Counted from the stretch's first letter, positions 1-18,589 are shown. The stretch is DNA of 37,822 nucleotides from a virus (IMGVR_UViG_3300008117_000138:1-37822); one strand, 5' to 3'. Made by a program: numbers and translations. Notes: generated by a model from the sequence alone, not told the origin.

Positions 1-186
1 CTTCTTTTGCATAAGTCTTACTTGACTCATAACACAATAGCTCATGAAGTATTTCATGCTGCGGTAAGAGTAACTGAGGATCGTGATATTACAGATGAAG
101 AGGCTCAGGCTTGGTTAGCAGGACATATTTCAGGAGTAATTTATAAGTTTTTACAAAAGAAGAAGCTACAAATAAAACATGGCTGA
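1..186 (+). CDS. Partial (5'-truncated) small zincin-like metalloprotease, HExxH
   Basis: Frame 1 is open from base 1: LLLHKSYLTHNTIAHEVFHAAVRVTEDRDITDEEAQAWLAGHISGVIYKFLQKKKLQIKHG*. It has an HEVFH motif and a downstream EEAQAWLAG helix. The TGA stop at 184-186 overlaps the next ATG (179). Not in the supplied ORF track. Confidence 0.75.
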   Translation, partial: LLLHKSYLTHNTIAHEVFHAAVRVTEDRDITDEEAQAWLAGHISGVIYKFLQKKKLQIKHG

Positions 187-3100
187 TAAAACACAGAACC
201 CCGGAGCTGTTACTAATACTTTTACAAAGGGTATGGTAAAAGACCTCAATGACACCTTTGTTGGTGAAGGTCTGTGGACTCATGCCCGTAATGCCGTGAA
301 TAACTCACACGATGGGCAGATGGGCGTTATAGGAAATGAACCTGCTAATCTGCATTGCATCACACTTCCGTATACTCTTATTGGCTGTATTCATCTTAAT
401 GATGACCAGTGGGTTGTCTTTACAACTAACAATATAGATTCTGAGATAGGTATCTTTGACGAGAGTGCTTGTTCTTATACAAAGGTTGTAAATGACAAGT
501 GTCTAAACTTTAAGACTAGTAATCTTATTACTGGTGCCTCACGTAGAAAATTTGATTGTAACAGATTAGTATACTGGGTAGATGGTCTTAATCCAGACCG
601 CTATATAGATATTAATGAGCCTCCGTTTAAGTTTAGAGAAACCATTGTAGACGGGTGTGCAACTAAAATATTACTTCAACCTTTGCAGCTTGATTGTGAA
701 AAAATCAGGATTGCCTCCTTGGTAGCACAACCTTGTTTAAATATAAAGAAAGGAGCTGGTGCAGGGACATTGGCTAACGGTTCTTATCAAGCATTGATAG
801 CTTACACTATTAATGGGGTAAGAGTAACAGACTACATGGGTGCAACTGAAATACAGCCCGTTTGGTCACATCAAAACGTTACAGGTTCTTTAGAGATAGA
901 AGTTATATCCGTAGATCAGACCTTTGATGAGTTTGAGTTAGTCATAATTTCAAATGTTAACCAACAGACTGTAGCTAAAAAAATAGGAATCTACTCAAGC
1001 AATCAAGGTAAAATATATGTAGACACAATTGGCCCTGAGCTTGTAACGGTGCCTTTAACTTTTGTATTACAAAGATCTGAACCAATTGAAAGATCTGATG
1101 CTATGTACAGTGTCAATGATTATCTTTTAAGAATTGGCATTAGATCAAAATATAAGTTTAACTATCAGCCTTTAGCTAATAATATTCAGACTCAGTGGAA
1201 TGCTGTTCAGTATCCAGCACAGTACTATTATAAAGGTGGAAACAACGCAGGCTATCTTAGAGATGAACAGTATGCGTTTTTTATTCGTTGGATCTACAAC
1301 ACAGGAGAACGTTCTGAATCTTATCATATTCCTGGAAGAGCTCCGTTGGCTACAGACACCCAACTTGACTTTGGTTCAGATGCTTATGAAGCTGCAGCTG
1401 GTCTTCAGCGTCAGCGTTGGCAAGTTCAAAATACAGCTACAGTAGACTCTATAACAACGTCTACTTTATCGGATGGAGGTGTTGTTATAGCTAGTGGTAA
1501 GATGGGCTATTGGGAAAGTACTGAAAAGTATCCTGATGATAAACAAGAAATATGGGGTACTCTTTGTGGTAAAAACATTCGTCATCATAAGATGCCTGAT
1601 GAAACAGTAAGTTCTTCATTAAGCCCTTTTAACTCTGACGGTAATAATATAGTAGTTCTTGGTGTATCATTTAGTAATATTCAACTGCCGGTAGACTTGA
1701 ACGGAAATGTTATTAGTTCTGTAGTAGGATATGAAATTTTAAGAGGAAGCAGAGAAGGTCAGAAGAGTATTATAGCAAAAGGACTTATTAATAATTTAAG
1801 GGAGTATGATATACCTGGGACAACTATTAAGGGATTATATCAGAACTATCCTTATAATGATCTTAGCTCAGATTTTTATTTAACATCAAGTCTTTCTATT
1901 ATAGATCCTGAAGCCGGCTCTGTGGTAAGTCCAACAGGTGATGATGCAGATTTGCAGAGTGAACCTAATGAAAATGGAATATCAAATAGAGAAGCAAGAC
2001 GGAGGCTTAGAGAGGCTAGACGTCAATTAAGAAGAAGTAGTGAAAACGGAGGTGTTCTATTAGACTATCCTTTGAGCTTATATAAGAAAGATTATCTTTC
2101 ATTTCATAGTCCTGATACTACTTTTACAAGACCGTTTCTTGGTATTACTGAATTAAAAGTATACCAAGAGGTATATGGTACTTCTAAAGGTAGTTTTACT
2201 ATACCATATAAGCATCCTAAGTTTAAGTCGGTAACAAACTTTGCTGGAATATTTTCAAGTGTTATAGGAATTATAAGTACCATAGGAAATGTTCTTTCTG
2301 CTATTGCTGAGAATGGTAATATAACATTAGGTAAAACTGAAAACTTACCGTACGAGAAAGTGTTGACTTTGTCTAAGGTTACAAACTTTCCTGTAGGGGG
2401 TTCATTTTTAGGTTCAGGTGTTACTATTCCTAACCCAGTTATTGTTGTTACTAATAGCATTATTGGAACTTATAATGTAAGCATGAGCGTAGCAATGTCT
2501 TATTTAGAAGCTACAGCAGTAGGAGAAAAAATTCTAAATATTATTTATGGTATGATACCAAGGCGTCAGAATGCATTGCAGTATGACTCTCATGGTTTCT
2601 ACAATAAAGGAAAGATTACACCTGAAGGAGATAGACGCTTTGAGATTAAGAACTCTACATACGTAGATTCTAATATTCAGAGCTTTAACTTTGACTATAA
2701 CATAAACAACGTTTTAAGATCTAACTACGTTTCACTTAATATATCACGTGATAAGCAGAATCCTACTGTAATTGATGACTCAAGATTTAGAATCAATAGA
2801 GCTAACGGAAAGATTAACCGTGTAGTAGATGCTACCATATCTGGACATTATGGAGCAGTAAAAGTGACTTTTCCATCTCAGTACGGACAGCTTGATCAGA
2901 TTAAGCAGGTACCTGTGTCACAATGCGTACATTCTATTAATACAGAGGTACCAAGACAAGTTACTGGTGTACTATTTAATGGGGATACCTATATTAATCG
3001 CTTTACAGAAAAGAACTCTTTCTTCTTCTTTAATTCTTGGTTAATGGGTGAGCCTGATGAAACAGAGTTTGATTATAGAAACTATGTAAACATAGCATAC

Positions 3101-4870
3101 CCAAGATTCTGGATAGATTCAGAAAGACCAAGTTTTGGTTTATTTAGCAGTGCTACCAACTATCGTCACTTAGACGAAAGAACAAGCTCAGCATTTTTTG
3201 TAAGTAAAGGGTATTTCTATCTTTTTAATTCCGGGGTACGCGACTTCTTTGTAGAAAGTGAGGTTAACTTGGCATATCGTGACTGGGAAGATCTAATAGA
3301 AAAACGTCACTACGACCCCTACAACTTCTCTGACTATAGATCTATGTTTAGATCTGATGTTATCAAGAGTACTAATTTTTACAAGTACGATTACTCTTTA
3401 AGTATTAGTAAGCTTTTTAACCAGTATGTGTCTTATGGAAACTTACTTCCAAGATACTATGATCCTAAAAAGTTTAATAGCTGTTTTACCTATTATCCTA
3501 ACCGGGTAATATATTCTTTACAGCAACAGTCGGAAGGAGTAAAAGATAACTGGAGAGTATTCCTGGCTAATAACTATAAGGATTTTAATTCACCGATTAC
3601 TTCTATAAAGCTTGTTAATAAAACAGGTGCATTGTTTATGATGGAGCGTCAGAGTCCGCTTCAGTTTATGGGCGTAGACCAACTTCAGACAGATGCAGGC
3701 ACTAAGATTACAGTGGGTGATGGTGGACTATTTAATCAGCCTTTGCAGAACATAGTTAACTCAGATGAGTCATATGAGTATGGAAGCTGTCAGAATAAGT
3801 TTGCCACACTAGGATGTACTCACGGTGTATTTTGGGTAAGCCAAAATCAAGGTAAGGTATTTCAGTATGCAGGTCAACTTAAGGAAATATCCAGAGACGG
3901 AATGAAATGGTGGTTTGCAAGATATTTACCTTCTGAACTTTTAAAGGTATACCCTGAGTATCCATTAAAGGATAACCCCGTTGCTGGCATTGGTGTACAA
4001 ATGATCTATGACAACACCAATGAAATAATCTATATCATTAAGAAGGATTACAAACCTAAGGTAACTAATCTGCTTTATGACGCAGGCGGTTTTTATAAAG
4101 TAACTACTGCTGGTAAAGTATACGTCCCGCTCACTGATACAAACAACTTTGAGAGTGCAAGCTGGACTATATCCTATGATCCAAAAAGTCAAACCTGGTT
4201 AAGTTTTCATGACTGGATTCCTAGCTTCTTAATTCCTGGTAAAGCTCATTTTATGAGCGTAAACATGAATTCTATATGGAAGCACAACGTACGTTGTGAC
4301 AAGTATACTAACTTCTATGGTATAGATTATCCTTTTGAAGTGGAGTTTGTTTCATCAACAGGGCAGCAAGTAGCATCCATGAGAAATGTAGAGTACCTGT
4401 TAGAAGCTTACAAGACTCACAATGAATGCCGGGATAAGTTCCATGTATTGGATCTAAACTTTGATCAGGCTATTGTTTATAACTCTGAACAGGTTTCTGG
4501 TTTATTAGAACTTGAATTAAAAAGCAAGGTTAATCCTGTGACGCTTATAAACTATCCTCAGATTCGTACTCAATCAATTGGGATTCATTACTCTAAAGAA
4601 GAGCAGAAGTATCGTTTTAATCAGTTCTGGGATATAACCAAGGACCGTGGGGAGTTTGCACCAGGAGTTAATATACCTATGTTTAATACTCGTCCTAATG
4701 GATATGAGTTTAACATTAACCCTGCATATGTAAATTATCAGAAAGCACCTTTAGAGCATAAGAAGTTTCGTCATAATGTAAACAAGGTCTTTCTACGTAA
4801 ACTGAAGAGTGATGATGTAAAATATTTATTTAAGATGTCTAATCAAAAGATTCTACAAAGTCTTAGGTAA
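179..4870 (+). CDS. Tail stabilisation / muzzle-like virion protein (crAss-like, P22 gp10-related)
   Basis: 1563 aa, beta-rich and aromatic-rich, with many Cys. N-terminal NTFTKGMVKD...ARNAVN...GNEPAN and C-terminal WTISYDP...WLSFHDW..P resemble crAss-like stabilisation proteins. It lies directly upstream of the cargo/RNAP genes, as in Crassvirales. Confidence 0.75.
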   Translation: MADKTQNPGAVTNTFTKGMVKDLNDTFVGEGLWTHARNAVNNSHDGQMGVIGNEPANLHCITLPYTLIGCIHLNDDQWVVFTTNNIDSEIGIFDESACSYTKVVNDKCLNFKTSNLITGASRRKFDCNRLVYWVDGLNPDRYIDINEPPFKFRETIVDGCATKILLQPLQLDCEKIRIASLVAQPCLNIKKGAGAGTLANGSYQALIAYTINGVRVTDYMGATEIQPVWSHQNVTGSLEIEVISVDQTFDEFELVIISNVNQQTVAKKIGIYSSNQGKIYVDTIGPELVTVPLTFVLQRSEPIERSDAMYSVNDYLLRIGIRSKYKFNYQPLANNIQTQWNAVQYPAQYYYKGGNNAGYLRDEQYAFFIRWIYNTGERSESYHIPGRAPLATDTQLDFGSDAYEAAAGLQRQRWQVQNTATVDSITTSTLSDGGVVIASGKMGYWESTEKYPDDKQEIWGTLCGKNIRHHKMPDETVSSSLSPFNSDGNNIVVLGVSFSNIQLPVDLNGNVISSVVGYEILRGSREGQKSIIAKGLINNLREYDIPGTTIKGLYQNYPYNDLSSDFYLTSSLSIIDPEAGSVVSPTGDDADLQSEPNENGISNREARRRLREARRQLRRSSENGGVLLDYPLSLYKKDYLSFHSPDTTFTRPFLGITELKVYQEVYGTSKGSFTIPYKHPKFKSVTNFAGIFSSVIGIISTIGNVLSAIAENGNITLGKTENLPYEKVLTLSKVTNFPVGGSFLGSGVTIPNPVIVVTNSIIGTYNVSMSVAMSYLEATAVGEKILNIIYGMIPRRQNALQYDSHGFYNKGKITPEGDRRFEIKNSTYVDSNIQSFNFDYNINNVLRSNYVSLNISRDKQNPTVIDDSRFRINRANGKINRVVDATISGHYGAVKVTFPSQYGQLDQIKQVPVSQCVHSINTEVPRQVTGVLFNGDTYINRFTEKNSFFFFNSWLMGEPDETEFDYRNYVNIAYPRFWIDSERPSFGLFSSATNYRHLDERTSSAFFVSKGYFYLFNSGVRDFFVESEVNLAYRDWEDLIEKRHYDPYNFSDYRSMFRSDVIKSTNFYKYDYSLSISKLFNQYVSYGNLLPRYYDPKKFNSCFTYYPNRVIYSLQQQSEGVKDNWRVFLANNYKDFNSPITSIKLVNKTGALFMMERQSPLQFMGVDQLQTDAGTKITVGDGGLFNQPLQNIVNSDESYEYGSCQNKFATLGCTHGVFWVSQNQGKVFQYAGQLKEISRDGMKWWFARYLPSELLKVYPEYPLKDNPVAGIGVQMIYDNTNEIIYIIKKDYKPKVTNLLYDAGGFYKVTTAGKVYVPLTDTNNFESASWTISYDPKSQTWLSFHDWIPSFLIPGKAHFMSVNMNSIWKHNVRCDKYTNFYGIDYPFEVEFVSSTGQQVASMRNVEYLLEAYKTHNECRDKFHVLDLNFDQAIVYNSEQVSGLLELELKSKVNPVTLINYPQIRTQSIGIHYSKEEQKYRFNQFWDITKDRGEFAPGVNIPMFNTRPNGYEFNINPAYVNYQKAPLEHKKFRHNVNKVFLRKLKSDDVKYLFKMSNQKILQSLR

Positions 4871-7800
4871 TGAACAAGCTATTACAACATATTATTAATG
4901 CTGGTGATGTAGACCACAAGATACTTCCTTCACTTCTGAAGATGGATGAAGGAGGAGAACTCATAAAACTTAAAGACTCTAAAGGTCGTGTGCGTGAGTA
5001 CAACACTGAGTCTCGTAAGTATAAACGCTTATATGACCAAGGTAAGATAGGCAGTTGGTCAAAGTTTGATCAAGGATCAGGTAAATGGGTATCTTCAGAT
5101 GCTTCAGATCCTAATGCAGAATTTGTTTCTTCCCCTAAAATACTTCCTGAGGTTGTTGTATCTTCTAAAGTTAAACCTAATAGTTTAGGTAGCTATTCAT
5201 CATCTTTTTATAAAGAGAACCCGTATGAAGACTTTTACAGAAATCGTTACCAGCAAGAAAAAGAAGAGTTTGAAAGTGCTCCAGGATGGGCACAACAGTC
5301 TGTAGGAGGATGGGATAGAGACTCTAGGCAGAAAAATGTAAGAGATCAGATTAATGAAGAGTACCAGAAAAAGTATTCTGACTATGTAGCTAGTAAGTTA
5401 ATTGGCAGAAATCCTCAAGGTAGCCAAAGTAGAGATACATGGTTATCTAACAAAAATTTTACTCCTAGAGAACTTCAAGTTCTTACGGGTAGTCAGAAAC
5501 TGCCACAGCCTAATCTTTGGGCACAAGGTGTACAGGGTCTATATAATACGGGAGACATGTTAACTTTTGGATCACTTCCTGAGTTAGCTATGCCCGGTAT
5601 TGCACGTTCAGAAGTACAGAACTATAATAATCCATTGCTTGCATTAGCACCTTTAAGCGTACCTGCAAAAATGGTTCAGTCTGTATATAAAGATAACTAC
5701 TCACTTGGAGATGCATTAGCTGGAAGACCCAATGATGCAGGCATTGCTGAAGATATTGCTACAGATCCTCTTACTTATCTGTCGTTTGGTACAAAACCCT
5801 TACTTACTGGTGCGGCTAGACTTAGTAGACTTTCTTCACCTTACTTAAATAGAGCAGCCAGATTTGTACCACAGGCTGTAAAAAACAATTTGCAGTTTTT
5901 AAAGAATACTAAAGGTACAGGTGTAACCCAGCTACCTGAAAGTGGTTACGTTTCTGGTTCATATGTTCCAGACTACATGAAAGGTGTAGAAGTAGTTGAT
6001 CCAGAAACCGGGGTAAGCAAAATTGTTTTTCAGCTTGAAGATGATATTTTACCTCCTCCACCAACAGAACAGTGGAATCTTATTGACTATAGTAATGTTC
6101 CTAGTTTTATTGATAACTTACCAGGTATTGTTAATAAACCTTCAACGTTATCAGTTTTAAAGAACAAGGCTTTAGCTTCTGGTACTAAATTAAAAAACAA
6201 ACTTTTTCCTGAAAACTATCATGACTACGGAAAACCCTTTGCAAATAGAAGGTATGACAGTTGGGCTCATGATATACATCCGGATCTTCCTGATGTCTTA
6301 CAGCCTGGAGAGTTAAAAAATCTTCATAAAGAAGCTATCAGACATTTTGGCGGTAGACAAGGTGTTTCTGATTTAGGACAGTTTGCTAATAAAAATATAG
6401 GACTATATGTAAGAGATAGACTTGCAAACAGAATTCCAAGTTATACCAAGCCAACTGTTGTAGATGAAACTACAGGGTTAATTAAGAACTATGGTCCTAA
6501 TAAAAAACACCCAAGTTTAGCAGGGAAAGATGCTGCTAATGAAATAATCTATCCGCAGCTAATGTATTCTCATACGTACGATCAAGCAAGATTAGATATA
6601 CTTCGTACCCCATATCAGAAGTGGGGATATGATATTTCTAAACTTAATCCTTCTCAATTAAACTTGATGGACTCATATGCTAGAGGATATAATGATTTTT
6701 TTAACAGTTATGGTAGAGGCTTTGCTAGCCCTATTAAAACTAAGACAGGAGATTTTTATGCTGATAAAGTACAGCAACTAAAAAATGCGGTAGTACAAAA
6801 TAAGTTTCCTGAAGCTACTCAAGTAAGAAGAGGAGAAGGTAACTATAATATCAATCTTTTAGATCCTATTACTTACAAGCCAACAGGTAAGGTTAAGTTA
6901 AAAAGTGATTTAGAAGTTGGTGATGTTTATAAGGATGATGGATTTTTATCTACTAGTTTAGACCGTAATTATACTTGGGGGGAAGATGTTGCATCTGAAG
7001 TAATTGATATTCCAGGTGGCATGAAACAGTCTTATGCATATCCTAACGCTATGTCTTCTTCTCCTTATGTAGATGAGCTAGAAGCTATACTTCCTCCTGG
7101 ACTTATAAGAAGAGTTGAAGAAGTAAGACTTCCTAATTCTGATGGTAGATTTTTAAATAATGCAAAGTTTAGAACGTCACTTATTAACCCGTATACTACC
7201 ACAGGACTCTTTTTAGGTGCCGGGGCATTAAAGCAAAAAGAAGAGGGTGGAGAAAATAAACAGTATAGTGGATCAAGTATTGTTGACTATTTAGCAACTA
7301 GAGGTTATAGCGGTAATAAGAAATTTAGAAAACAGCTTGCTCAAGAGTATGGTGTTGAAGGATATGATTATTCTGCAAGAAAGAATTTAGAGTTATTAAG
7401 TAAGCTCAGAGAAAATGATGATCTTCTTGAAGCTCATGAACAGAGTTTTGCTCCAGTTACGCCAGAAAGTTTAGAAGAATTAACAAAGGAAAGAACTAAA
7501 AGGATTGTTGAAACAGCTACACAAAGGGATGAAAGAAAGATTAGTCCTCAAGAGTTTAATCGTAGGATGAGCATGATGATGGGGTTTGATGTATCTCAAG
7601 GTATTCCAAGTGATAGGTTTGTTATTAATACACCTAAACTTTCTTTGTCTCCAAAAGTAAAGTATGATAAGTTTTCGCTTATACCAAGAATGGAGAATAA
7701 GAGTATTGATTTAAGTTCAACAAAGCCTGATAAACCAGAGGTTATACAACAAGTTGCACCACCTGTTGAGAAGCAGCCTGTTGTAAACAACACAGGATTT

Positions 7801-10122
7801 AGATTTGATTTAAACCCTACACAAAAACAGGGTATAAATCCTTTGCCGTTTTATAACCCATTTATACCGGGTAACATGACAGTGGCGGGTACCAATACAC
7901 CTGTTGCTCCAGCTACCGTAAATACTTCTAAACCACAACAAAAGCAAACTGTTATTGATAAACCTTGGTATGAAGATGCTTGGGACGCAGCATCATCTGC
8001 ATTGAATACAGCTGAAGATTATGCATCAGATGCATGGCAGGGTATTTCAACTGCTCCAGCTAAAGTTTCAAAATGGTGGTCAGACGGAATAAACAATAGT
8101 ATTCTGGGACAGGGTAATGTAACAATGAATCCTTATGGTTTTACTCCTCAAGGGGCAAAAGCAATGGCAGATGACTTAATGTCTATCATGCCTGAAGCTG
8201 TTCAAGATCTTTGGGAAAAAGCAAAAAATAGTAATGAAAGAAGTAAAGCTAAAAATAACCCAAGTCTTGTTGAAAGAAAAAGTGGTTTAGATCCTACTAA
8301 ACTAAAGTATGATCCTGTTTATATAACTGGTGACACTTTAAAAGACAATGCCAGAAGGTACCACATACCTGAGGTAATGGATCTGGATTACATGCGTTTT
8401 GGAGTAAGAAACCGAGGAGACTATTCTGAGCTAAACACAGAAGGTGCACCTATAACTACTTTTGAACCATTTGTAAGTTCTAAAAAATATTTTGCTACTA
8501 GTAAAGATCCTGCTAATGCTACATATATAGGTATATCTACGGACGGCAGGGTAAAAGTGGGCACAAAAGATAAATTTCAGGATAAAGAATATCAGATAAC
8601 TAGGTCTTATGGCAATAAAGTAATAGACTTTAACAGAGATGAAACAGGGAAGATAGTAAAAGTCCCTTCTAATCCTAAAGCTTCTAAAGAAACATTGTCT
8701 CCATCTGTAAAAGTACTTGGGGATGATGGTAAAGCAATAGACGGTAAATTAAGTTTATTGTTGCCTAGAGAAGGTAATCAGGAACAATCATATGACTTAG
8801 TAACAGGTGGTCGGTATATACTTCAAACACCAGATGGTAAAACAAAACTTGTTAGTGGATCACTTAAAAATATAGAAGATGAATTCTATAGGATGAAAGG
8901 TAAGCATCCATGGGTTAATGTTATTACACTTGACAATGGTTCATATTCAAGGGGTCTTAGAACATTTGATCAAAAGTTAACTAAAAAGGATCTCAAAGGA
9001 TATGACAACCAAAATACTGGTGGTGGGAACTTTGCTTATTTATTACCTGGTCAAAAGAAAACTAGATATGACTCCAAGTTTTTTGACTTTGAGCAGGAAG
9101 CTAAGAAAAAACTTCAGGCTAAATATCCAGGAAGGAAAGTAGAAATACGATTCCAGAATGAAGGACTATATGATGAGACTGGAGGACGTGATATTGAAAG
9201 TCAGATTAATATACAAAAAAAGGGAAATTCTAAGACGCCTGTATCTCTTCACAACTTTGGAGCTGCTCGTGACTATATTTTATATGTTGATGGTAAACCA
9301 ATAAATGCGGATGCTAATAAACAACTTTACAAAGATGTTCTTTGGAATGCAGCTGACGCAACCGGTACATATCATCTTGAAGACTGGGACCCCGCTCATA
9401 TATCACTTGCTAAAGAAGGTCAGAAGACTGCGTTTGATGAGCTTGCTAAAAAGTATCCTGATATCTGGGCTAATCCAAACTTCCAAAGAAGTCTAGAGTT
9501 TATTAATAAGAATAAGGCCAACCCTACGTACGAAGAGTACTTTGAAATGTTGAACAACATTGCAGAGTTTACTGGCCAGCCTAAAGTAACTGAGGTTATG
9601 AAAAGAAAAGGTTGGAAGTTTAATAAAGATGGCAAGATTGTAGATAAGAAAGGTAGGCTAGTTAATAAAGCCTCTGGAGGAGCTGTTATAGATCCTCGTG
9701 GTCAATGGGCTTATCCTGGTATGGATACTATAGTACCTACTGCCTCTGGGGATATTACTATGCAAGGTGTTCCTTATCCTGTATATGGAGAAGATGAAAC
9801 CGGCTATGGTCAAATGATGATGCCTGGAGGTGAGTATCAGTTTCCCGGTCAGATGGTGTATGAAACACCTATGATGAAATCAGGAGGTCAGCATGGAGGA
9901 CTAGACAGATGGTTTGCAGAAAGATGGGTGGATGTAAAGACAGGTAAACCATGTGGTAGACAAGAAGGAGAGAACAGAGCATATCCCGCATGTCGTCCTT
10001 CTAGAAGAGTATCATCTCAAACACCAAAGACTTCATCAGAAATGAGTCCAGCTGAGAAGGCTAAGTTTAAAAGAAGTAAAACTTCTTCACAGCGTATAAA
10101 CTATAATCATAAAAGAAATTAA
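4870..10122 (+). CDS. Polyvalent virion cargo protein (ADP-ribosyltransferase + DUF3597-like + M15 peptidase + small modules)
   Basis: 1750 aa, coupled to the upstream gene by a TAATG overlap. Recognisable motifs are listed as separate features. Modules are separated by MDEGG, KEEGG, KASGG and MKSGG. Confidence 0.8.
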   Translation: MNKLLQHIINAGDVDHKILPSLLKMDEGGELIKLKDSKGRVREYNTESRKYKRLYDQGKIGSWSKFDQGSGKWVSSDASDPNAEFVSSPKILPEVVVSSKVKPNSLGSYSSSFYKENPYEDFYRNRYQQEKEEFESAPGWAQQSVGGWDRDSRQKNVRDQINEEYQKKYSDYVASKLIGRNPQGSQSRDTWLSNKNFTPRELQVLTGSQKLPQPNLWAQGVQGLYNTGDMLTFGSLPELAMPGIARSEVQNYNNPLLALAPLSVPAKMVQSVYKDNYSLGDALAGRPNDAGIAEDIATDPLTYLSFGTKPLLTGAARLSRLSSPYLNRAARFVPQAVKNNLQFLKNTKGTGVTQLPESGYVSGSYVPDYMKGVEVVDPETGVSKIVFQLEDDILPPPPTEQWNLIDYSNVPSFIDNLPGIVNKPSTLSVLKNKALASGTKLKNKLFPENYHDYGKPFANRRYDSWAHDIHPDLPDVLQPGELKNLHKEAIRHFGGRQGVSDLGQFANKNIGLYVRDRLANRIPSYTKPTVVDETTGLIKNYGPNKKHPSLAGKDAANEIIYPQLMYSHTYDQARLDILRTPYQKWGYDISKLNPSQLNLMDSYARGYNDFFNSYGRGFASPIKTKTGDFYADKVQQLKNAVVQNKFPEATQVRRGEGNYNINLLDPITYKPTGKVKLKSDLEVGDVYKDDGFLSTSLDRNYTWGEDVASEVIDIPGGMKQSYAYPNAMSSSPYVDELEAILPPGLIRRVEEVRLPNSDGRFLNNAKFRTSLINPYTTTGLFLGAGALKQKEEGGENKQYSGSSIVDYLATRGYSGNKKFRKQLAQEYGVEGYDYSARKNLELLSKLRENDDLLEAHEQSFAPVTPESLEELTKERTKRIVETATQRDERKISPQEFNRRMSMMMGFDVSQGIPSDRFVINTPKLSLSPKVKYDKFSLIPRMENKSIDLSSTKPDKPEVIQQVAPPVEKQPVVNNTGFRFDLNPTQKQGINPLPFYNPFIPGNMTVAGTNTPVAPATVNTSKPQQKQTVIDKPWYEDAWDAASSALNTAEDYASDAWQGISTAPAKVSKWWSDGINNSILGQGNVTMNPYGFTPQGAKAMADDLMSIMPEAVQDLWEKAKNSNERSKAKNNPSLVERKSGLDPTKLKYDPVYITGDTLKDNARRYHIPEVMDLDYMRFGVRNRGDYSELNTEGAPITTFEPFVSSKKYFATSKDPANATYIGISTDGRVKVGTKDKFQDKEYQITRSYGNKVIDFNRDETGKIVKVPSNPKASKETLSPSVKVLGDDGKAIDGKLSLLLPREGNQEQSYDLVTGGRYILQTPDGKTKLVSGSLKNIEDEFYRMKGKHPWVNVITLDNGSYSRGLRTFDQKLTKKDLKGYDNQNTGGGNFAYLLPGQKKTRYDSKFFDFEQEAKKKLQAKYPGRKVEIRFQNEGLYDETGGRDIESQINIQKKGNSKTPVSLHNFGAARDYILYVDGKPINADANKQLYKDVLWNAADATGTYHLEDWDPAHISLAKEGQKTAFDELAKKYPDIWANPNFQRSLEFINKNKANPTYEEYFEMLNNIAEFTGQPKVTEVMKRKGWKFNKDGKIVDKKGRLVNKASGGAVIDPRGQWAYPGMDTIVPTASGDITMQGVPYPVYGEDETGYGQMMMPGGEYQFPGQMVYETPMMKSGGQHGGLDRWFAERWVDVKTGKPCGRQEGENRAYPACRPSRRVSSQTPKTSSEMSPAEKAKFKRSKTSSQRINYNHKRN
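6640..7190 (+). other. R-S-E class ADP-ribosyltransferase domain (VIP2/Alt-like)
   Basis: SYARGYNDFFNSYGRG (Y..Y..N..R helix), VRRG (Arg about 6829), GDVYKDDGFLSTS (STS 6949-6957) and DELEAILPPG (ExE 7075-7083), in the canonical order. Confidence 0.85.
7264..7410 (+). other. DUF3597-like small domain (often appended to cell-wall hydrolases)
   Basis: YSGSSIVDYLATRGYSGNKKFRKQLAQEYGVEGYDYSARKNLELLSKLR matches the recalled SIVDYL..R..LA..YG...Y..A..N..LL..L pattern. Confidence 0.65.
9170..9410 (+). other. Peptidase M15-family Zn domain (Ply500/L-Ala-D-Glu peptidase-like)
   Basis: GRDIESQINIQKKGNSKTPVSLHNFGAARD (SxHxxGxAxD; His 9250, Asp 9271) followed by WDPAH (His 9397). Confidence 0.8.
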
Positions 10123-10132
10123 GATATATCTC

Positions 10133-11617
10133 ATGGCAAACAAACCTAATAACCCAAGCCTCTGGTCTAAAGCTAAGTCTCTAGCCAAACAGAAATTTGA
10201 TGTCTATCCCTCAGCTTATGCAAATGGCTGGGCAGCTAAGTGGTACAAAGGTAAAGGCGGTACATGGCGTAAAGCCGAGTACGGTATGGAGGTACCATAT
10301 ATGGAAGATGGAGGTAAGCCTGAATGGCTTATAGAAGCTCAGCTTGAAGCACAGGGTTATTCTGGTAATGCTCTAGAGCAAAAGATGTCTTCTATGGCAG
10401 AAGGCGGTGAACCACAAAATGCTGGTTTTCAAGCATTGCCTGAGTATGTACAAGAAAAAATAATTAACAATATGGCTTTTGGTGGCTATATCCCTGATAT
10501 GGCTTATGGTGGTGCACAGCAAGCTGCTATTGCTATTGCCATGAAGAAAGCTGGCAAGAAACCAAAGTCTATGCAGAAGGGCGGAGAGCCCGATGGATCT
10601 ATGGCTCTTGGTCAAATTGATGCTGCTATTGATAAGTTACAGAAACTACGTCAGTTTATTCAGCCAGAATCAGACTTAGAACCATGGGTTAGCTCTAAAC
10701 TTACTCTTATGGATCATTATACAGATGCAGTATCTGACTATATGACTTATAACCCAGAAGCTCAAGAGATGCAAGGTCTGCCTATGGAGCAGATGAGAGA
10801 AGGGGGTATACCACAGCGTTACAGAAATATGGGATTTAACAAAGTGGGTGTTAAGAAGAATAGCACAAGACCCGGTAAGAAGTGGATGGTGTTAGCTAAA
10901 AAAGGATCTGATTATAAAGTTGTCCATGGTGGCTATGATGGTATGAAAGACTTTTCTCAGCATGGCTCTCAGAAACGTAAAGAAAACTTTTGGAATCGTA
11001 TGGGAGGAAAGAACTCTTCTAAAGCTACTGATCCGTTTAGTCCGTTATACTGGCATAAGCGTTTTGGTACTTGGCAAGACGGTGGTGAGATACCTGAAAT
11101 GAAAGCAGGAGGTTCTACTTTTTCTGGTAATGCATGGTATGAGATGGGTGGGATGCCTTTATATGATTATGCTTATGGTGGTTACATGCCTGAGATGTAT
11201 AAAGAGGGAGGTATTCATATAGACCCTGCTAAGAAAGGAACATTTAAAGCTCAAGCTACTCGTATGGGTATGAGTGTACAAGAAGCAGCTAATGCTATAC
11301 TAAATGCACCTAAAGGAAAGTACTCTGCAGCTATGCGTAAGAAAGCAAACTTTGCTAAAAACTTTGCAAAAGAAGAAGGTGGTGAACTACCTCAAGCAGG
11401 TAATGGTTGGATTGTTCCAGCAGCTCTTGGAGCTTTAGGTCTTGGTGCTATGATGTGGTCTAATAATAAACGTAAACAGATTGGTAATGCTGTTATGCCT
11501 ATGATGACTTCTGGAATAATGGAGGATGGCGGTCTTACACCTGGAGATGAAATAGAAGTAACTCCAGAAGAACTTCAGATGTTAAAAGACGGTGGTTACA
11601 CCTTTGAAATAATCTAA
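10133..11617 (+). CDS. Beads-on-a-string virion cargo protein made of small modules separated by Phi-x-x-GG motifs
   Basis: 494 aa with 13 Phi-x-x-GG motifs. Modules include PSAYANGW, LEPWVSSKLT..DYM, STRPGKKWMV...HGGY.GMKDFSQH (DUF5754-like) and GIHIDPAKKGTF...KKANFAKN, plus a hydrophobic segment WIVPAALGALGLGAMMW. Confidence 0.8.
   Translation: MANKPNNPSLWSKAKSLAKQKFDVYPSAYANGWAAKWYKGKGGTWRKAEYGMEVPYMEDGGKPEWLIEAQLEAQGYSGNALEQKMSSMAEGGEPQNAGFQALPEYVQEKIINNMAFGGYIPDMAYGGAQQAAIAIAMKKAGKKPKSMQKGGEPDGSMALGQIDAAIDKLQKLRQFIQPESDLEPWVSSKLTLMDHYTDAVSDYMTYNPEAQEMQGLPMEQMREGGIPQRYRNMGFNKVGVKKNSTRPGKKWMVLAKKGSDYKVVHGGYDGMKDFSQHGSQKRKENFWNRMGGKNSSKATDPFSPLYWHKRFGTWQDGGEIPEMKAGGSTFSGNAWYEMGGMPLYDYAYGGYMPEMYKEGGIHIDPAKKGTFKAQATRMGMSVQEAANAILNAPKGKYSAAMRKKANFAKNFAKEEGGELPQAGNGWIVPAALGALGLGAMMWSNNKRKQIGNAVMPMMTSGIMEDGGLTPGDEIEVTPEELQMLKDGGYTFEII
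10301..11533 (+). repeat. Dispersed protein-level repeat Phi-x-x-G-G (13 copies in this ORF)
   Basis: MEDGG, MAEGG, MAFGG, MAYGG, MQKGG, MREGG, WQDGG, MKAGG, YEMGG, YAYGG, YKEGG, KEEGG and MEDGG, read directly from the translation. Confidence 0.9.
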
Positions 11618-11620
11618 CTT

Positions 11621-13333
11621 ATGAAAATACGTATTACAGGAAAAAAGTTACCAAAAGCTCAGTGGGGCAACACGGGTTTGTTTCAAATGGGGCAGTCTTT
11701 ACAGAATGCCATGAAACTAAAACAGAATCCATTGTATGATCCTAATAATCCTGCTGTACAAAATCTAACAGGATCTGCTAGATTTCCTACAGGCTCCATA
11801 TCTCGTTTTGGGCCTATGTCATTGAATCTAGGTCCGGAACAGTATGCATTGACACAAGGATCTGATGGTATTTTAGATAGTTCAAGAGGATTTGTTACAG
11901 AAGAAGATACTAACGCTTTTGATGCATATGACTGGACAAAGGCTAAACAAGTTCCTGAGTATAATAATCTTATGGATGTATTTAATACAGGATCTAAAAA
12001 GCAGATGAGACAATCTGTTAAAGATTACAATAAACAGTTTGGAACAAATGTCAAAGGCCCAGGTCTATTTACTATGGGTGCTAAAGGCAGGGAAACAATG
12101 AATCATCTTTCAAATACTTTTAATAAGATAGGTGATGGTATAAAAATAGGTACTGTAATAGGATCTGCTATTACAAATCTTGCAGACGCTAGGAAAAAAG
12201 AAAAAGAGTTTAATCGTTGGAAAAGAAGTCAGCTTAACTCTGATTATTTATCTATGCCTGTTGAAGGTTCTCGTGGAGATTATGTAGCTAGCGGTTCTCG
12301 GTTTGGGGAATTTAGACCTGATGATTATGTTGTTAATAAAGGAATGTATACAGGACAGTTCTTTCCAAGAATGATGCAGTCAGGAGGTGTAATTCCAGAA
12401 GCATTATCATTTCCTATAACTCCTATGGAGGCTAATATAAGTACTGCACCAGCAGTTGAGCCTGAAGTTTCATCTTCTAAAGAGTCATCTTCTAAATCAT
12501 ATCGTTCATCTGGAGCTAATGAAGAAGCTGAACAAACATGGAGTGATATATCTAACGAGTATAAGGGAGTAGAGAACTGGGGAATATGGGGTGATGCAAG
12601 ACATAAGAAAACTAAAAGTGATCACAATAGTGGTGATGCATTAGACATTGGTATTTCTAGTGAAGATCAGGGTACTCAGATTGCTCAAAAACTAATTAAA
12701 GAAGCACAGGAAAGAAATATAAAGTACATCATTTGGAATAAAAAGATATGGAATCCTTCTGTATCAAATGACTGGAGACCTTACAGTGGTGATAGTCCTC
12801 ATACAGATCATGTACATGTAAGTTTTAATAGAAACCCAGAAACTCTTGGTCAGATATCGTTGACACACAACAACCCTTTAAACATACATCATGGCGACTT
12901 TTCTCAAAAGTATGGCGGCAAGCAAGGATCTAAAGATGGGGGTGGTTATGTAAGCATGTTCCCGGATCTAAATACAGGGATACAAGCTGCAAAAGATCTT
13001 TTGTTTGGACCTAATTATTCCAACCTGACTATTTCTCAGGCTAGAAATAAATGGGTAAAGGGTGATCCGGGTGTTACAAGTGAATCATCGTCACACATCG
13101 TAAAAGCAATAGGAGCTGATAAACGGATAAGTGAGCTAAGTGCTGCTGAAAAAGAACAGCTTCTTAAACTGTTTGCAAAGTGGGAAGGTAAGCAAGCTTA
13201 TAATAAGATAAAAGAAATGAAGTTGTTTGAAGAAGGTGGCCTAGTTTCTTATGCTCAAGATGGCGTATACGAGCTGACAGAAGATGAAATAAAATCTGTG
13301 TTAGCAGCCGGGGGTGAAGTAGAATTTATATAA
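11621..13333 (+). CDS. Virion cargo protein with tandem peptidoglycan hydrolase domains (M15-like Zn peptidase + lysozyme-like)
   Basis: 570 aa. SDHNSGDALD...YIIWNKKIW...HTDHVHVSF at 12578-12826. HNNPLNI...FPDLNTGIQAAKDLL...LTISQARNKW...AKWEG at 12866-13190 resembles NNPGNI-type virion lysozyme-fold proteins. Confidence 0.75.
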   Translation: MKIRITGKKLPKAQWGNTGLFQMGQSLQNAMKLKQNPLYDPNNPAVQNLTGSARFPTGSISRFGPMSLNLGPEQYALTQGSDGILDSSRGFVTEEDTNAFDAYDWTKAKQVPEYNNLMDVFNTGSKKQMRQSVKDYNKQFGTNVKGPGLFTMGAKGRETMNHLSNTFNKIGDGIKIGTVIGSAITNLADARKKEKEFNRWKRSQLNSDYLSMPVEGSRGDYVASGSRFGEFRPDDYVVNKGMYTGQFFPRMMQSGGVIPEALSFPITPMEANISTAPAVEPEVSSSKESSSKSYRSSGANEEAEQTWSDISNEYKGVENWGIWGDARHKKTKSDHNSGDALDIGISSEDQGTQIAQKLIKEAQERNIKYIIWNKKIWNPSVSNDWRPYSGDSPHTDHVHVSFNRNPETLGQISLTHNNPLNIHHGDFSQKYGGKQGSKDGGGYVSMFPDLNTGIQAAKDLLFGPNYSNLTISQARNKWVKGDPGVTSESSSHIVKAIGADKRISELSAAEKEQLLKLFAKWEGKQAYNKIKEMKLFEEGGLVSYAQDGVYELTEDEIKSVLAAGGEVEFI

Positions 13334-13353
13334 ATTAGTAATATCCAATACTT

Positions 13354-15426
13354 ATGAAATACAAAGTTAGAATTAAGAAAGCTCCAGACATGATGGCTTA
13401 TGGCGGTCAGACAAATTATGGTCTAGATCTTGGAGCTAGAAATGTTTATCAGGATATGGAAGATAGTCCATATGAGAGTGTTTCTAATACTCTGCAACCG
13501 GTAGACAGATCTATAGCAAATATAGAAGCCGAACTTGGTGAAACCGTTGTTGGTGATTTTGATCAAGATGGTCAGAATGAACACATGAAGATTGGGGGTA
13601 AACCTCACTCTCAAGGCGGTACACCGTTAAAAGTTCCTGAAGGGTCTTTTGTATTTTCTAAGACAAAGAAGATGAAGATAGGAGGACCAGTTCTTTCTAT
13701 GTTTGGTAAATCAGCTACAACAAAGAAAAAGTTTTCACCTGCTGAACTTGCAAGACAGTACGACATTAATAAGTATAGAGCTGTTTTAGATGATCCATAT
13801 GCAGATCAGATTTCTAAATCTACTGCTGCTAGAATGATTGATAGTTATGAAAAGAAGCTTGGAGGTTTGGCTCTTCTTCAGGAATCAATGAAAGGATTTC
13901 CTCAAGGTATTCCAAATATTGCTATGCCTTATCTTCAGACTATGATGCCGATGGGTCAGGAGCAAGAAGCACCTATGGCTAAATATGGCGGTTATTATTA
14001 TGATGAGGGAGGAGAGAAAGATGATGTACCTAGAAAAAAGATTTCACCAAAAGAAGTATCTTCTTATGAAGCTCAGGGTTATAAAAGAGTAGGTAATACA
14101 AATGTATGGAGAAAGACAACTTCAGGTAAAGACGTAAAAGATGTCGTTGTAACTCCTGGAGCTGCAGGTAGTTCAACTTCTGGTACCGCTGGTCAAATTG
14201 TTCCTGGTGGTAGAATTACTGGAGACGGTGGTTGGAAAGCCCCGGCAGGTTGTGGAAATTTATTGTACACACCTGAAGATGTAAAAGCAAGACCTGGATG
14301 TTATAATACATTCTTAAATAAGAATGGTTTTAAAGATGCTCCTGAGGAAGATTTGAAAAAGGGTCTTCTAGATTGGAAACGCGGTTACAGACCTACTTAT
14401 AAACCTGGAACACCTCCAACTAAAACTGATCCTAAGCCTGAAACTAAAACTTGTCCTGATGGACCAAATGGAGAAAAGTACACTATAGATCCAAATGATC
14501 CTACCAAGTGTATAAGAGTGTGGGAGAATACTGATGAGGTGTATACTGAAGATACGCCTAGAATTCCTGGTAAGATACCACCTCCTTCTAAAAGAGGTAA
14601 TGACTATCTACCGTTTTTTGGAACACAATTTATGGTTCCTCCTAAAAAGTATCATCCTTATGCTGCACCACTTAATGCTACAATACCTTATCCAACCTTT
14701 TATGATCCAAACCGAGAGCTTGCTGAATTAGCGTCAACTGAAAAAATGCAAGCTGAGTATATGGCTAATTTAGATCCTCAGGCTTACAATGCTCGTCTTG
14801 CTGCTTTGAATGCCCAAGGTGCTGAGCGTAAAGCTAGTACGATAGGTCGTTACCAGAATATGAATGTGGGAGTAGCCAATCAGTTTAGTCCAATGCAGAC
14901 TGACATTATGAACAAGATAATGGCTTATAGAGCTGATGCTATGGACAAAGTTGTTCACAATGCTCAGCAAGAAGATAAAGCTTATAGAAACTCTTGGAGG
15001 ACTCTAGGTAGAAATCTTGATCTTTATAATATAAATAGATACAAGTATAAAACTGAGAAGAATTTACTAAATGCTACAAATCCTTGGTATAATCTAGTAG
15101 ATGGTTTTGGTGGAGCTAACTTGGCTATGAAGCCAGGCGTTACTTGGAATGATATTGTCACAGGTAGAATACCTGGTACAGGATCTTCTTCCGCTGACCC
15201 TAAAGATGTAGAAGCCGAAGCTATCAGACTTAAAGGAACAGGACTGGATGCAGCTACTATCAATGAAATTCTCAGAAGAAAATATCCACAAGCGTCTACT
15301 TCTAGGTCTGGTGTATCTTCTTCAGCTAGAAATTATTTAAACATGACCATGCCTGGTATGACCAGTGGTTATAATGCATATCCATTTAGTACTGGAGGTT
15401 TTGACATTTCTGATTATGGAGACTAA
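13354..15426 (+). CDS. crAss-like virion cargo protein
   Basis: 690 aa. N-terminal ANIEAELGE...GKPHSQGGTP...FVFS module typical of crAss-like cargo proteins, a Pro/Gly-rich centre with 4 Cys, and a Gln/Asn/Ala-rich helical C-terminus. Confidence 0.65.
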   Translation: MKYKVRIKKAPDMMAYGGQTNYGLDLGARNVYQDMEDSPYESVSNTLQPVDRSIANIEAELGETVVGDFDQDGQNEHMKIGGKPHSQGGTPLKVPEGSFVFSKTKKMKIGGPVLSMFGKSATTKKKFSPAELARQYDINKYRAVLDDPYADQISKSTAARMIDSYEKKLGGLALLQESMKGFPQGIPNIAMPYLQTMMPMGQEQEAPMAKYGGYYYDEGGEKDDVPRKKISPKEVSSYEAQGYKRVGNTNVWRKTTSGKDVKDVVVTPGAAGSSTSGTAGQIVPGGRITGDGGWKAPAGCGNLLYTPEDVKARPGCYNTFLNKNGFKDAPEEDLKKGLLDWKRGYRPTYKPGTPPTKTDPKPETKTCPDGPNGEKYTIDPNDPTKCIRVWENTDEVYTEDTPRIPGKIPPPSKRGNDYLPFFGTQFMVPPKKYHPYAAPLNATIPYPTFYDPNRELAELASTEKMQAEYMANLDPQAYNARLAALNAQGAERKASTIGRYQNMNVGVANQFSPMQTDIMNKIMAYRADAMDKVVHNAQQEDKAYRNSWRTLGRNLDLYNINRYKYKTEKNLLNATNPWYNLVDGFGGANLAMKPGVTWNDIVTGRIPGTGSSSADPKDVEAEAIRLKGTGLDAATINEILRRKYPQASTSRSGVSSSARNYLNMTMPGMTSGYNAYPFSTGGFDISDYGD

Positions 15427-15484: not shown

Positions 15485-18400
15485 ATGGCACAATACCTAC
15501 CCTATATTCCTGAAGTATTTCCGGAGCCGGCCCTGTATAAGCCCGACTTGAACTTCTTTGATAGGATGCTTCAAAGGAAACAGAATCAATTTGAACAGGG
15601 TTTAAATCAGGTAAAGTCTGCGTATAACTCTGTGTTAAATGCACCTCTTTCCGATAAAGCTAATGTTCCTTTAAGGGATGCATACATCAAACAGGCTCAA
15701 GAGAACCTAAAAATTATGGGTTCTTCGGATCTTTCTCTTCCTCAAAATATACAAGCTGCTCAGGGAATCTTCTCTCCTTTTTGGGAAGATGATTTTATTA
15801 GCAAGGATGCTTCGTTAACTAAGTGGTATCAGGGTGAGGCCTCAAAGCTTGCTAGCTGGAGAGATTCCCCAGATGAGAAGGTTCGTTCTAAGTACAATGG
15901 CATTGCTATGATGTATTTGAACAATGGCCTTAGTGCTCTTCAGAATGCTAACCGTAGTGCTGATGCCTACTCTAAAATAGAAAAGCGTCAGGCTGTACCA
16001 TTTACTAATATAGAGCAGTTCCTGCAGGAGCAGGCTAAAGGTCAAGGTCTTGAAATCAAGTATGATGATCCAAATGGAGCTTACTTGGTTGAAACTATTA
16101 ATGGTCAGCGTTCTCAGAAAAAATATAGTGTGTGGGCTCAAAGCTTGGTTGGGAATAACTTCTATGACCAGTTTAGAGTGACCGGTATTGTAGAAAAAGA
16201 AGAACGTGCTAAAGCTATTAAGAAAAGTAATCCTAATCTATCCGAACAAGAAATAGGTAACATTATTGCTAAAGATGTAGTAAGTGAACTACAACAAGGA
16301 TATAAAAAACGTACTGAAGAAGTTGATGTAGAATTATCTAGGGTTAACAGTCTTTTGACTAGTGTAGCTCAGGCTAATAATCCTGCAAACCAAAATCTTT
16401 TTGACAACCTTATTTCTGAACGTGCTAATCTTATAGCTCGTAAAGATGCTATTAATGAAGAGTATAAAAACTTTGATAAGGATACTAAGGACAGATTATT
16501 TAACACAGTAGTTGGAAATCCTGATGGATACTTTGCAACTCTTGCTAAACAGCGTCTAGTTGAAAACTGGGCTACAGGTCGTGCAAGCATTGAATCTAAA
16601 TTAATTAAAGAGAATGCAGCTTGGACTTCTGCTCAGAACTTAAACTTAAGGCAAAAAGAGTATGACTTAAATACTCAAAAAGCTATTTGGGATAGAGATC
16701 AGGACTTGTGGGAAAGGGAACATCCTACTGCAGGTAAAACTAACACAACAAGTGCTGCTAAACTTAAAGATGCCCAAGGTAATGATATAGAAGCTCCTGT
16801 TTTAGGTCAAGATAAAGAAAACTCTATAATGTATAGAGGGTTTTCTGGAATTGATATTACACGTAATCAGGCTACAGCTTTAGATTTGTTTAATCAACTT
16901 CAAAGTAAAGATTTTTCAGAAGCTCATAGTTTGATCTTTGATCAGCAAGGTATTCTCGGTTTAGCTAAAAATCTTGGGTTAACTCAAGAAGAAATAGCTC
17001 ATGTGGCTACAGCATTTCAAAAAGAAGTGGCTAGTGGTAATGCACATAAGTTTACTAAAGAGCAAACTGCTGCTGTAACAAAACTAGAAAAAGCACTAGT
17101 AGCTAATCAAGGAGTAAAGAATGCAGGTATTACATCATTAACAGGACCTGAAACAGCACGTAATGCTCTCATCGCATATGCTCAAGATTATTTTGCTCAG
17201 CGTAACAACCTATCAAAAGATGGCAATGATGTACCTCTTAACAATACTGAGTTTGAAGCATTGATGAGATACATGACTGGTGTAGAAAAACTGAGTAGGT
17301 ACACAGCTAATGAAAAAAACAGAGAAGACTTAATTCAGAAAAATATAGTTTCTAATAAAGAATATGCAAGTCTTGTTGTAGATCGTGGTGGTAAGAAAGA
17401 CCTTATAACTTTATCTGATCTTGCTAAGGATATGCCTACAATGGAGCTTAGAGAAAAGGCATCTAATGAACTAAGAAAGTTTAGTAAAGAAGATGTTGCT
17501 CGTATGTATATGTCAGGTAAGCTTAGCGGGACTAAAATGGGTGAGCTTGTAATTGATGGTAAAGTATATATACCAGAAAAGCTAAATGATATTTCAGGTG
17601 GCTTTGCAGGAAGAAATCCCATTGTAGCTTGGAATACCATGTATGCAGATGTTCTTACGTCAAAGTATGGTGAGTCAAGTGCTTTCAGCAAGCTTATGGA
17701 AAAAGCTAACCAGTCAATAGTTCCTAATCTTTTAATGTATAGAGAGCAGAGTGGTAAGCAAGGAACAGCATGGACATTATATTTTATGCCCAATAAAACT
17801 ATGGGGCAAGGAGACAGGGCAGCTCAGATTGTAGACCAGGCTCTTAACACAGCTAATGCAGATATATATGACAATGGTGCTGATCCTAAACAATTAGACA
17901 CTAAAACAATGGATGCCATTAGGGCTTTGTTGAAAAGTGAAAAGAACATGGAGGAGTACATTGGAGCTGAGTATATTCCTCAAGGAGTTAATGGTAAAAG
18001 AACTCTACGCATAGTGTTTAGTAAACCAATTTCAGAAGAAAGCAAGGCTGCTATTGGAAATGTAAATCTATCATCTATTTCTGGTCAAACATTTAATATT
18101 GTTCTTAAAGATGGAACAACAGCTCCTGCATTAGACGCTTTACCTAACAGCACTGGTTATCAAGTGTATGATATGATTGCAAGAGGTAAAGTATTTAAGA
18201 GTGATCCTGTTATAGAAGCCAGTGGTTTTAAATTTGCTATTACTCCTAATGTAATTACAAGTGAGGGTACTGCAGATGAGCAGCCTTCTTATGTTACAGT
18301 AGATCTTGAGTTCAATAATAGAGTAAATGAAAAAGATCCAAAATCTGGTCAGATGTTAACAACTGTGAAACCACAAAAGATATCTCAGGTTATTCAGCTG

Positions 18401-18589
18401 ACAGGGTCAACTGCAAAAAGTCCTGATGAGATTGTAGAGTACCTCTATGGTTTGTATTATCAGAACATGCTTGATAATAGAAACAGGCAACAGGAGTTTC
18501 AAAACTATATCAAGACAAATCAGAGTGGCTCACGAGCTGACTTTAATGAGCAGCTCAAAGCTCTTGGCCTTGGATATTTGATTAAATAA
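15485..18589 (+). CDS. Large helical virion/ejection protein preceding the vRNAP
   Basis: 1034 aa, no Cys, coiled-coil-rich N-terminal half. Its position matches the first of the giant cargo genes in crAss-like phages. No catalytic motif recognised. Confidence 0.65.
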   Translation: MAQYLPYIPEVFPEPALYKPDLNFFDRMLQRKQNQFEQGLNQVKSAYNSVLNAPLSDKANVPLRDAYIKQAQENLKIMGSSDLSLPQNIQAAQGIFSPFWEDDFISKDASLTKWYQGEASKLASWRDSPDEKVRSKYNGIAMMYLNNGLSALQNANRSADAYSKIEKRQAVPFTNIEQFLQEQAKGQGLEIKYDDPNGAYLVETINGQRSQKKYSVWAQSLVGNNFYDQFRVTGIVEKEERAKAIKKSNPNLSEQEIGNIIAKDVVSELQQGYKKRTEEVDVELSRVNSLLTSVAQANNPANQNLFDNLISERANLIARKDAINEEYKNFDKDTKDRLFNTVVGNPDGYFATLAKQRLVENWATGRASIESKLIKENAAWTSAQNLNLRQKEYDLNTQKAIWDRDQDLWEREHPTAGKTNTTSAAKLKDAQGNDIEAPVLGQDKENSIMYRGFSGIDITRNQATALDLFNQLQSKDFSEAHSLIFDQQGILGLAKNLGLTQEEIAHVATAFQKEVASGNAHKFTKEQTAAVTKLEKALVANQGVKNAGITSLTGPETARNALIAYAQDYFAQRNNLSKDGNDVPLNNTEFEALMRYMTGVEKLSRYTANEKNREDLIQKNIVSNKEYASLVVDRGGKKDLITLSDLAKDMPTMELREKASNELRKFSKEDVARMYMSGKLSGTKMGELVIDGKVYIPEKLNDISGGFAGRNPIVAWNTMYADVLTSKYGESSAFSKLMEKANQSIVPNLLMYREQSGKQGTAWTLYFMPNKTMGQGDRAAQIVDQALNTANADIYDNGADPKQLDTKTMDAIRALLKSEKNMEEYIGAEYIPQGVNGKRTLRIVFSKPISEESKAAIGNVNLSSISGQTFNIVLKDGTTAPALDALPNSTGYQVYDMIARGKVFKSDPVIEASGFKFAITPNVITSEGTADEQPSYVTVDLEFNNRVNEKDPKSGQMLTTVKPQKISQVIQLTGSTAKSPDEIVEYLYGLYYQNMLDNRNRQQEFQNYIKTNQSGSRADFNEQLKALGLGYLIK

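Follow-up and report, generated by a model that had tools for sequence, protein, structure and literature searches.

A locus in which one short peptide motif recurs through several neighbouring genes raises the question of what the repeat does: whether it marks the edges of protein modules, whether the proteins are cut at it, or whether it docks them or lets them unfold. The window considered here is the whole of a 37,822 nucleotide stretch of viral DNA (IMGVR_UViG_3300008117_000138), and the genes in question are four adjacent open reading frames (ORFs), 4870, 10133, 11621 and 13354, referred to below as ORFs A to D (Table 1). The original prediction, made from this sequence alone, was that their products are polyproteins delimited by (M/Y/F/W/K)-x-x-G-G, which would be a maturation-protease site and/or a capsid-loading tag. 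We find that the motif is a real and conserved punctuation, acting at the protein level, of cargo proteins of the crassvirus C1 type, and that modules are exchanged at it. With a probability of about 0.55, we propose that the joint (M/Y/F)-(Q/A/K/E)-x-G-G is a processing site in these proteins.

Motif enrichment in the C1 slot

The four cargo ORFs contain 28 copies of [MYFWK]xxGG against 6.7 expected, a number reached by none of 1000 shuffles, which bears out the predicted excess and corrects the earlier count of about 20. Across the window's other five ORFs the count is 5 against 7.5 expected, and neither the muzzle gene nor the giant polymerase gene has the motif in excess, as had been predicted. 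The pooled excess is driven by ORF B (14 motifs against 2.1 expected) and ORF D (6 against 1.4), each significant alone, while ORF A (5 against 2.3, p 0.08) and ORF C (3 against 1.1, p 0.09) are not singly significant. All six motifs named in the original prediction, those listed for ORFs A and C in Table 1, are present at the coordinates it gave. The beading described for ORF B is also real, although its 14 copies give 15 beads of 9–93 amino acids rather than 13 copies and beads of 5–90. The confidently folded domain of ORF D contains MKIGG (13585 and 13672) and KKLGG (13852), and the GQW module of ORF A contains MMPGG (9817), so not all matches are punctuation.

In relatives the genes run from the rings and the muzzle through two to four variable genes and one conserved gene to the giant polymerase, an order that matches gp43–gp47 in crAss001. 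Because of this match the four cargo ORFs are placed in the C1 cargo protein (gp45) slot, between the muzzle gene, which serves as the upstream marker, and a gp46-like gene, in keeping with the prediction that they form a virion cargo locus. The same C1 position, between the muzzle and C2 (the latter assigned by synteny), is seen in 19 loci, crAss001 and Fpv3. The muzzle-type gene and the DFDID motif place the window in the Crassvirales or a close relative; the capsid (PF23898) and ring proteins (PF24228 and PF25702) were found in a 97% complete relative, G001, and are missing from the window, itself only a fragment. Together the four cargo ORFs probably represent an expanded and split form of C1.

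Because the motif pattern was picked after the window had been viewed, its behaviour in relatives matters. The set comprised the window and those 18 of 38 viral loci that had both marker genes, with two duplicates and the cultured phages excluded. In the C1 slot of these 19 loci (54 ORFs, including those of the window) [MYFW]xxGG occurs 275 times against 54.5 expected, a 5-fold excess, compared with 35 against 23 in the muzzle genes and 5 against 7.3 in the gp46-like genes of the same loci. The consensus across loci is M/Y/F, Q/A/K/E, any residue, G, G. Genome-wide, 14 of the 16 strict motifs of G001 fall inside its two C1 genes, as do 9 of 14 in a second genome, G003. The 275 copies use 239 different 15-nucleotide spellings; the first residue alternates between ATG, TAT and TTT, and the second Gly codon is at background, the first being somewhat GGT-rich (72% versus 58%). 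Because codon use varies in this way, the motif is selected at the level of the protein.

Module edges and exchange at the motif

Comparison of the 19 homologous loci placed 119 of 586 internal homology-block ends within 8 amino acids of a motif, against 51 expected, and a motif-masked repeat gave 137 of 556 against 58. Other Gly-Gly pairs near block ends were at chance (51 against 49 expected), as were motifs near block ends in the muzzle and gp46-like controls (7 against 6.8). Eighty per cent of block ends lie away from any strict motif; the existence of single-Gly and Lys/Ala variants is part of the reason. Modules are flanked on both sides by the motif, and some are free-standing genes elsewhere. 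In one relative (L018) the homologues of ORFs A and B are fused through KEYGG where the window has a stop and a start. The ORF D domain occurs in 279 proteins, 124 of which start free and 94 of which are fused, the other 61 being unclassified; in 71 of the 94 fused proteins a motif lies no more than 22 amino acids ahead of the internal start of ORF D, against 1.8 expected, these lineages not being independent. The MQSGG–FEEGG slot of ORF C, predicted to bracket hydrolases, is indeed a unit of exchange: it holds a lysozyme in P0069 and P0084 and is empty in L001. The motif thus sits at module edges, as originally predicted; it also replaces gene boundaries and flanks slots whose content is acquired, lost or swapped.

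The pattern extends to cultured crassviruses. On a relaxed reading crAss001 gp45 has eight motifs (at 17, 206, 260, 329, 370, 424, 559 and 825), whereas gp44, gp46, gp49 and the capsid protein are motif-free and gp47 and gp50 have four and two loose matches. The motif is present in the C1-slot proteins of DAC15, crAss002, Carjivirus communis, frurule, cr108 and cr126, with few copies in Fpv3 gp30, and three gp46-slot proteins have 0–1 each. PhiCrAssBcn1 (95.5% identical) lacks gp45 residues 266–375, that is two modules, and the junction is inside motifs. The cultured Leptolyngbya phage Lbo-JY46 (L014:11992-16969; listed host cyanobacterial) has the same muzzle, GQW module, motif-bearing C1 layout and terminal module, and is a possible bench model.

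The crAss001 C1 protein (PMC10172136; PDB 7QOG chain M; Pfam PF25725) resembles the window in its slot, its motif, a related portal-binding domain and a shared type of small basic module. It differs in being one gene of 842 amino acids, compared with four genes, 3504 amino acids and enzyme modules in the window, and in the order of its His and Glu blocks, which is opposite to that of the ORF D domain. Residues 43–192 of ORF D match 1574 clusters at 50% identity and have a confidently predicted fold. The domain scores 0.92 against PF25725 in the Atlas comparison (163 features in common), gives an hhalign E of 0.006 with the portal-bound piece of gp45 and superimposes on 7qog_M at Z 5.2 (root mean square deviation 4.7, 95 aligned). 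These three weak, agreeing lines, together with synteny, indicate that ORF D carries a portal-binding domain homologous to gp45 425–552. Several searches were negative: neither BLAST nor a profile built on 7 sequences gave a significant match, PDB sequence searches with both alignments likewise gave none, and tblastn of whole ORF D found no match in cultured phages, its N-terminal part matching Flavobacterium phages only at E 0.2–0.7. A fold search with a 229-residue ORF D model returned helical hairpins as its top rows (Z up to 5.5) and no protease among the matches listed, the beta part being barely tested. E58, E60, E63 and H85 are invariant in the domain, which points to a possible catalytic or metal site. 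The C1 domain also occurs in variant forms, among them one at a protein end without the Ser (L022:14258-14428) and one with the crAss001 block order (L019:3458-10573).

Processing, docking or flexibility

For processing, we propose that the cargo precursors would be made as strings of independent modules and loaded at the portal through the portal-binding domain and partner modules. A virion protease would then cut at the motif, freeing the modules after loading and releasing small basic head peptides, wall hydrolases and the ADP-ribosyltransferase for ejection. The enzyme and the bond are the least certain part. The candidates for the enzyme are the portal-bound domain itself, a zincin linked to the polymerase and a host protease; the zincin-type HEAFH in the giant polymerase gene is a second candidate beside the portal-bound domain, and a preprint on phi14:2 proposes that a zincin cuts the polymerase polyprotein. 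If the joint is cut, a bond inside the motif or ahead of it is more likely than one following Gly-Gly. Of the maturation-protease site originally predicted, the module-edge role stands, while a cut after Gly-Gly of the adenovirus and African swine fever virus (ASFV) type is doubtful, because the gp45 model covers G428-W429 and searches of five related genomes turned up neither a C48 nor a C39 protease. A more specific proposal, which we consider rather unlikely, is that the portal-wing C1 domain (12 copies), with its invariant His and three Glu and usually a Ser, is a new protease family cutting all Phi-x-x-Gly-Gly joints at the portal, and that a related module may cut lambda gpH. If true, crassviruses, the commonest gut phages, would run a plug-and-play injection cassette.

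The matrix-assisted laser desorption/ionization (MALDI) peak lists of 13 crAss001 virion gel bands (Shkoporov et al., PMC6235969) were matched to 29 crAss001 proteins. Twelve bands were identified clearly or fairly and band 10 weakly; band masses were inferred from order, and only visible bands had been excised. The portal (12 copies, 92.9 kDa) gave 11 peaks against 2.0 by chance and five of its eight Arg peptides, and gp47, gp49 and gp50 run at full length. The best band for gp45 (12 copies, 90.7 kDa) gave five peaks against 1.8, three of which gp22 or gp25 can account for, so that two weak ones remain, and 2 of its 14 Arg peptides were seen over all 13 bands. Full-length gp45 is therefore not evident in the gel bands, which fits processing. 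Published work has placed gp45 in crAss001 virions, with residues 214–245 modelled in the tail and 425–552 on the portal, 12 copies each and 420 Å apart across the portal (PMC10172136); each modelled piece falls between two motifs.

A number of results weigh against processing. Motif-free gp46 is nearly absent from the gel too (0 of 9 Arg peptides), which weakens the gel argument. No cut and no cleavage product was detected in the crAss001 MALDI bands: 4 of 42 semi-tryptic candidates match a peak, a number not distinguishable from chance, and only two motif-spanning gp45 peptides lie in the measured mass range, neither of which was seen. The range of the portal-bound gp45 model starts at A425 of N-A-F-G-G and covers G427-G428-W429. 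No protease of family S78, C48 or C39 was found in five related genomes, and Pfam found none among the 109 ORFs of G001 except a tail S74 domain. In the genome-wide count for G001 the portal, scaffold and capsid genes have no strict motif, unlike T4-type maturation, in which a prohead protease would have the same site in all three. A Ser-His-Glu triad was considered for the ORF D domain and rejected, the candidate Ser102 being replaced in 2 of 30 sequences. Finally, Bayfield et al. interpret the two gp45 pieces as parts of a single chain that passes uncut through the portal, and the available sections of that paper mention neither the motif nor cleavage for gp45 (PMC10172136).

Another possibility is that the motif is a repeated docking tag which is never cut, and whose aromatic residue or Met plus Gly-Gly would bind a capsid, portal or cargo surface many times over and concentrate C1-type proteins in the cargo zone. 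This would account for the tandem motifs of ORF B, which at 9–13 amino acids apart would free no useful product, for motifs near protein ends, for an ordered AFGG in the portal-bound gp45 piece and for the failure to find a known protease. A tag, however, has no need to flank each module or to replace a stop and start, and the gel gives no clear sign of full-length gp45. Because gp46 and the polymerase are packaged motif-free and only C1-type genes carry the motif, the predicted general capsid-loading tag is not upheld, and docking in the narrower form is possible but unlikely. Less probable still is that the motif stays uncut and serves as a hinge or unfolding joint, allowing the chain to thread the portal and tail and tolerating module exchange. 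Gly-Gly is flexible, single-Gly variants exist and in the published model gp45 runs unfolded along the portal tunnel (PMC10172136), yet a hinge would work without a constant hydrophobic residue three positions ahead of Gly-Gly, other Gly-Gly pairs are at chance at module edges, and gp46 and the polymerase are equally ejected without the motif. A pure DNA-repeat origin, as a recombination site or duplication by-product with no protein meaning, was rejected as highly improbable on the 239 spellings, the switching first-residue codons and the background second Gly, even though the PhiCrAssBcn1 deletion joins two similar Gly-Gly codon stretches and the first Gly is GGT-rich; microhomology may help module shuffling.

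Known systems offer partial parallels to processing at the joint. Adenovirus protease and ASFV pS273R, both of clan CE, act at a hydrophobic residue plus Gly-Gly in virion precursors, a combination that the window motif also has; the adenovirus site has one residue between the two where the window has two, no C48 gene was found in five relatives, and the gp45 model extends over one Gly-Gly site. T4-type head-maturation motifs end in Glu. In T4 (gp21, S77; internal proteins, Alt) packaged basic peptides and an ADP-ribosyltransferase are cut at short motifs, as proposed here, and a report on SPN3US and phiKZ head maturation by gp245 likewise has packaged cargo cut at short motifs (PMC10052503). 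In these systems, however, cutting extends to capsid and scaffold, and a gene of its own encodes the protease, neither of which is seen in the crassvirus locus. The lambda tape-measure protein gpH is converted to gpH* by an enzyme described as unknown in PMC12617516, with products reported at 78 and 14 kDa. gpH (L044:1043-3604) has FATGG 733, YATGG 778 and MRDGG 842 in its C-terminal part, around the unknown cleavage region, and a cut at FATGG 733 would give 80 and 12 kDa; profile comparison to gpH gave no significant match (best E 0.16), and we treat this link as a lead only. A full-text literature search found no paper describing the motif, subscription papers being largely outside its coverage. 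If the motif is a cut site, separate C1 pieces would replace the published single threaded chain, and crassviruses would have a maturation step absent from the available published descriptions of C1. Such cutting would account for the swapping of hydrolases, ADP-ribosyltransferases and small basic peptides into virions, and would give boundaries for annotating them.

Modules of the cargo ORFs and neighbouring genes

Table 1. Features of the window, in window coordinates unless given as residues (aa).
Feature	Position	Strand	Basis or remark
Window		all +	37.8-kb virus-record fragment, nine long ORFs
ORF 179, muzzle (tail-tip) gene	179..4870	+	PHROG virion structural protein E 6e-67; crAss001 gp44 slot
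Cargo ORF A (ORF 4870), 1750 aa	4870..10122	+	Motifs 4942, 7237, 9667, 9874
Putative ADP-ribosyltransferase domain	6637..7140	+	PF03496 E 3e-8; R 6826, STS 6949, ExE 7075
DUF3597-like segment	7270..7401	+	Right after KEEGG; PF12200 E 8e-4, below cut-off
Candidate M15-type peptidase	9226..9400	+	SxHxxGxAxD 9244, DxxH 9388; PF13539 only E 0.1
GQW module, 64 aa	9682..9873	+	Between KASGG and MKSGG; 26 loci; Atlas best 0.79
Basic module, C-half of DUF5872	9889..10119	+	E 3e-13
Cargo ORF B (ORF 10133), 494 aa	10133..11617	+	14 motifs, 15 beads
ORF B motifs	10247, 10301, 10394, 10472, 10499, 10571, 10793, 11072, 11099, 11138, 11168, 11198, 11369, 11519	+	
Cargo ORF C (ORF 11621), 570 aa	11621..13333	+	Motifs 12374, 13226 flank exchangeable slot
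ORF C slot, two candidate cell-wall hydrolases	12389..13225	+	PHROG endolysin E 3e-4
Cargo ORF D (ORF 13354), 690 aa	13354..15426	+	Punctuating motifs 13393, 13978, 13999, 15385
ORF D domain, residues 43-192	13480..13929	+	Sequence-cluster matches, predicted fold, profile and fold comparison
gp46 (C2)-position gene	15485..18589	+	Motif-free; downstream marker; assigned by synteny
Giant virion RNA polymerase gene	18609..32837	+	DFDID at aa 3479; zincin-type HEAFH at aa 1952

The R, STS and ExE motifs of ORF A are those of a predicted arginine-specific (R-S-E) ADP-ribosyltransferase, a segment absent from a close relative (L011). The coordinates predicted for the MDEGG–KEEGG bracket around it are right, but the bracket is loose because the match fills only residues 590–757 of a 765-residue interval. 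Further along, the M15-type pattern SxHxxGxAxD/DxxH makes a peptidase of this type likely. A conserved block at 8300–9150, common to L011 and with no Pfam match, contains LDNGSY, which in our view resembles a phosphodiester glycosidase motif. The GQW module is widespread and had no match to a known family in the Atlas comparison. Both halves of DUF5872 are separate, motif-free small genes in cyanophage P-SCSP2, the C-half being the basic module of ORF A. Four of the 15 beads of ORF B are strongly basic (DUF5872 N-half, DUF5754). The slot of ORF C has an M15-like SxHxxGxAxD at 12617, HxDHxH at 12800 and NNPLNI at 12869, and on these motifs it is likely to hold two cell-wall hydrolases. ORFs B and C share a similar acidic end module of 27–30 amino acids after a motif (11534–11614 and 13241–13330), kept in relatives, which is a candidate loading tag. 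Pfam matched only DUF5754, DUF5872, DUF3597 and DUF6973 among 50 cargo ORFs of relatives, so no cargo catalogue is offered, and an NCBIfam search gave no useful match.

Downstream of the polymerase, ORFs 32879 and 35803 (32879–37308) are apparently one gene, split by a frameshift near 35755–35770 where another frame runs straight into ORF 35803; the frameshift may be an assembly slip or real. Ahead of the terminase region, G001 carries an arginyl-tRNA-protein transferase-like gene (PF04377; L046:6756-7430) and a Tad2-like anti-defence gene (L046:8577-8873).

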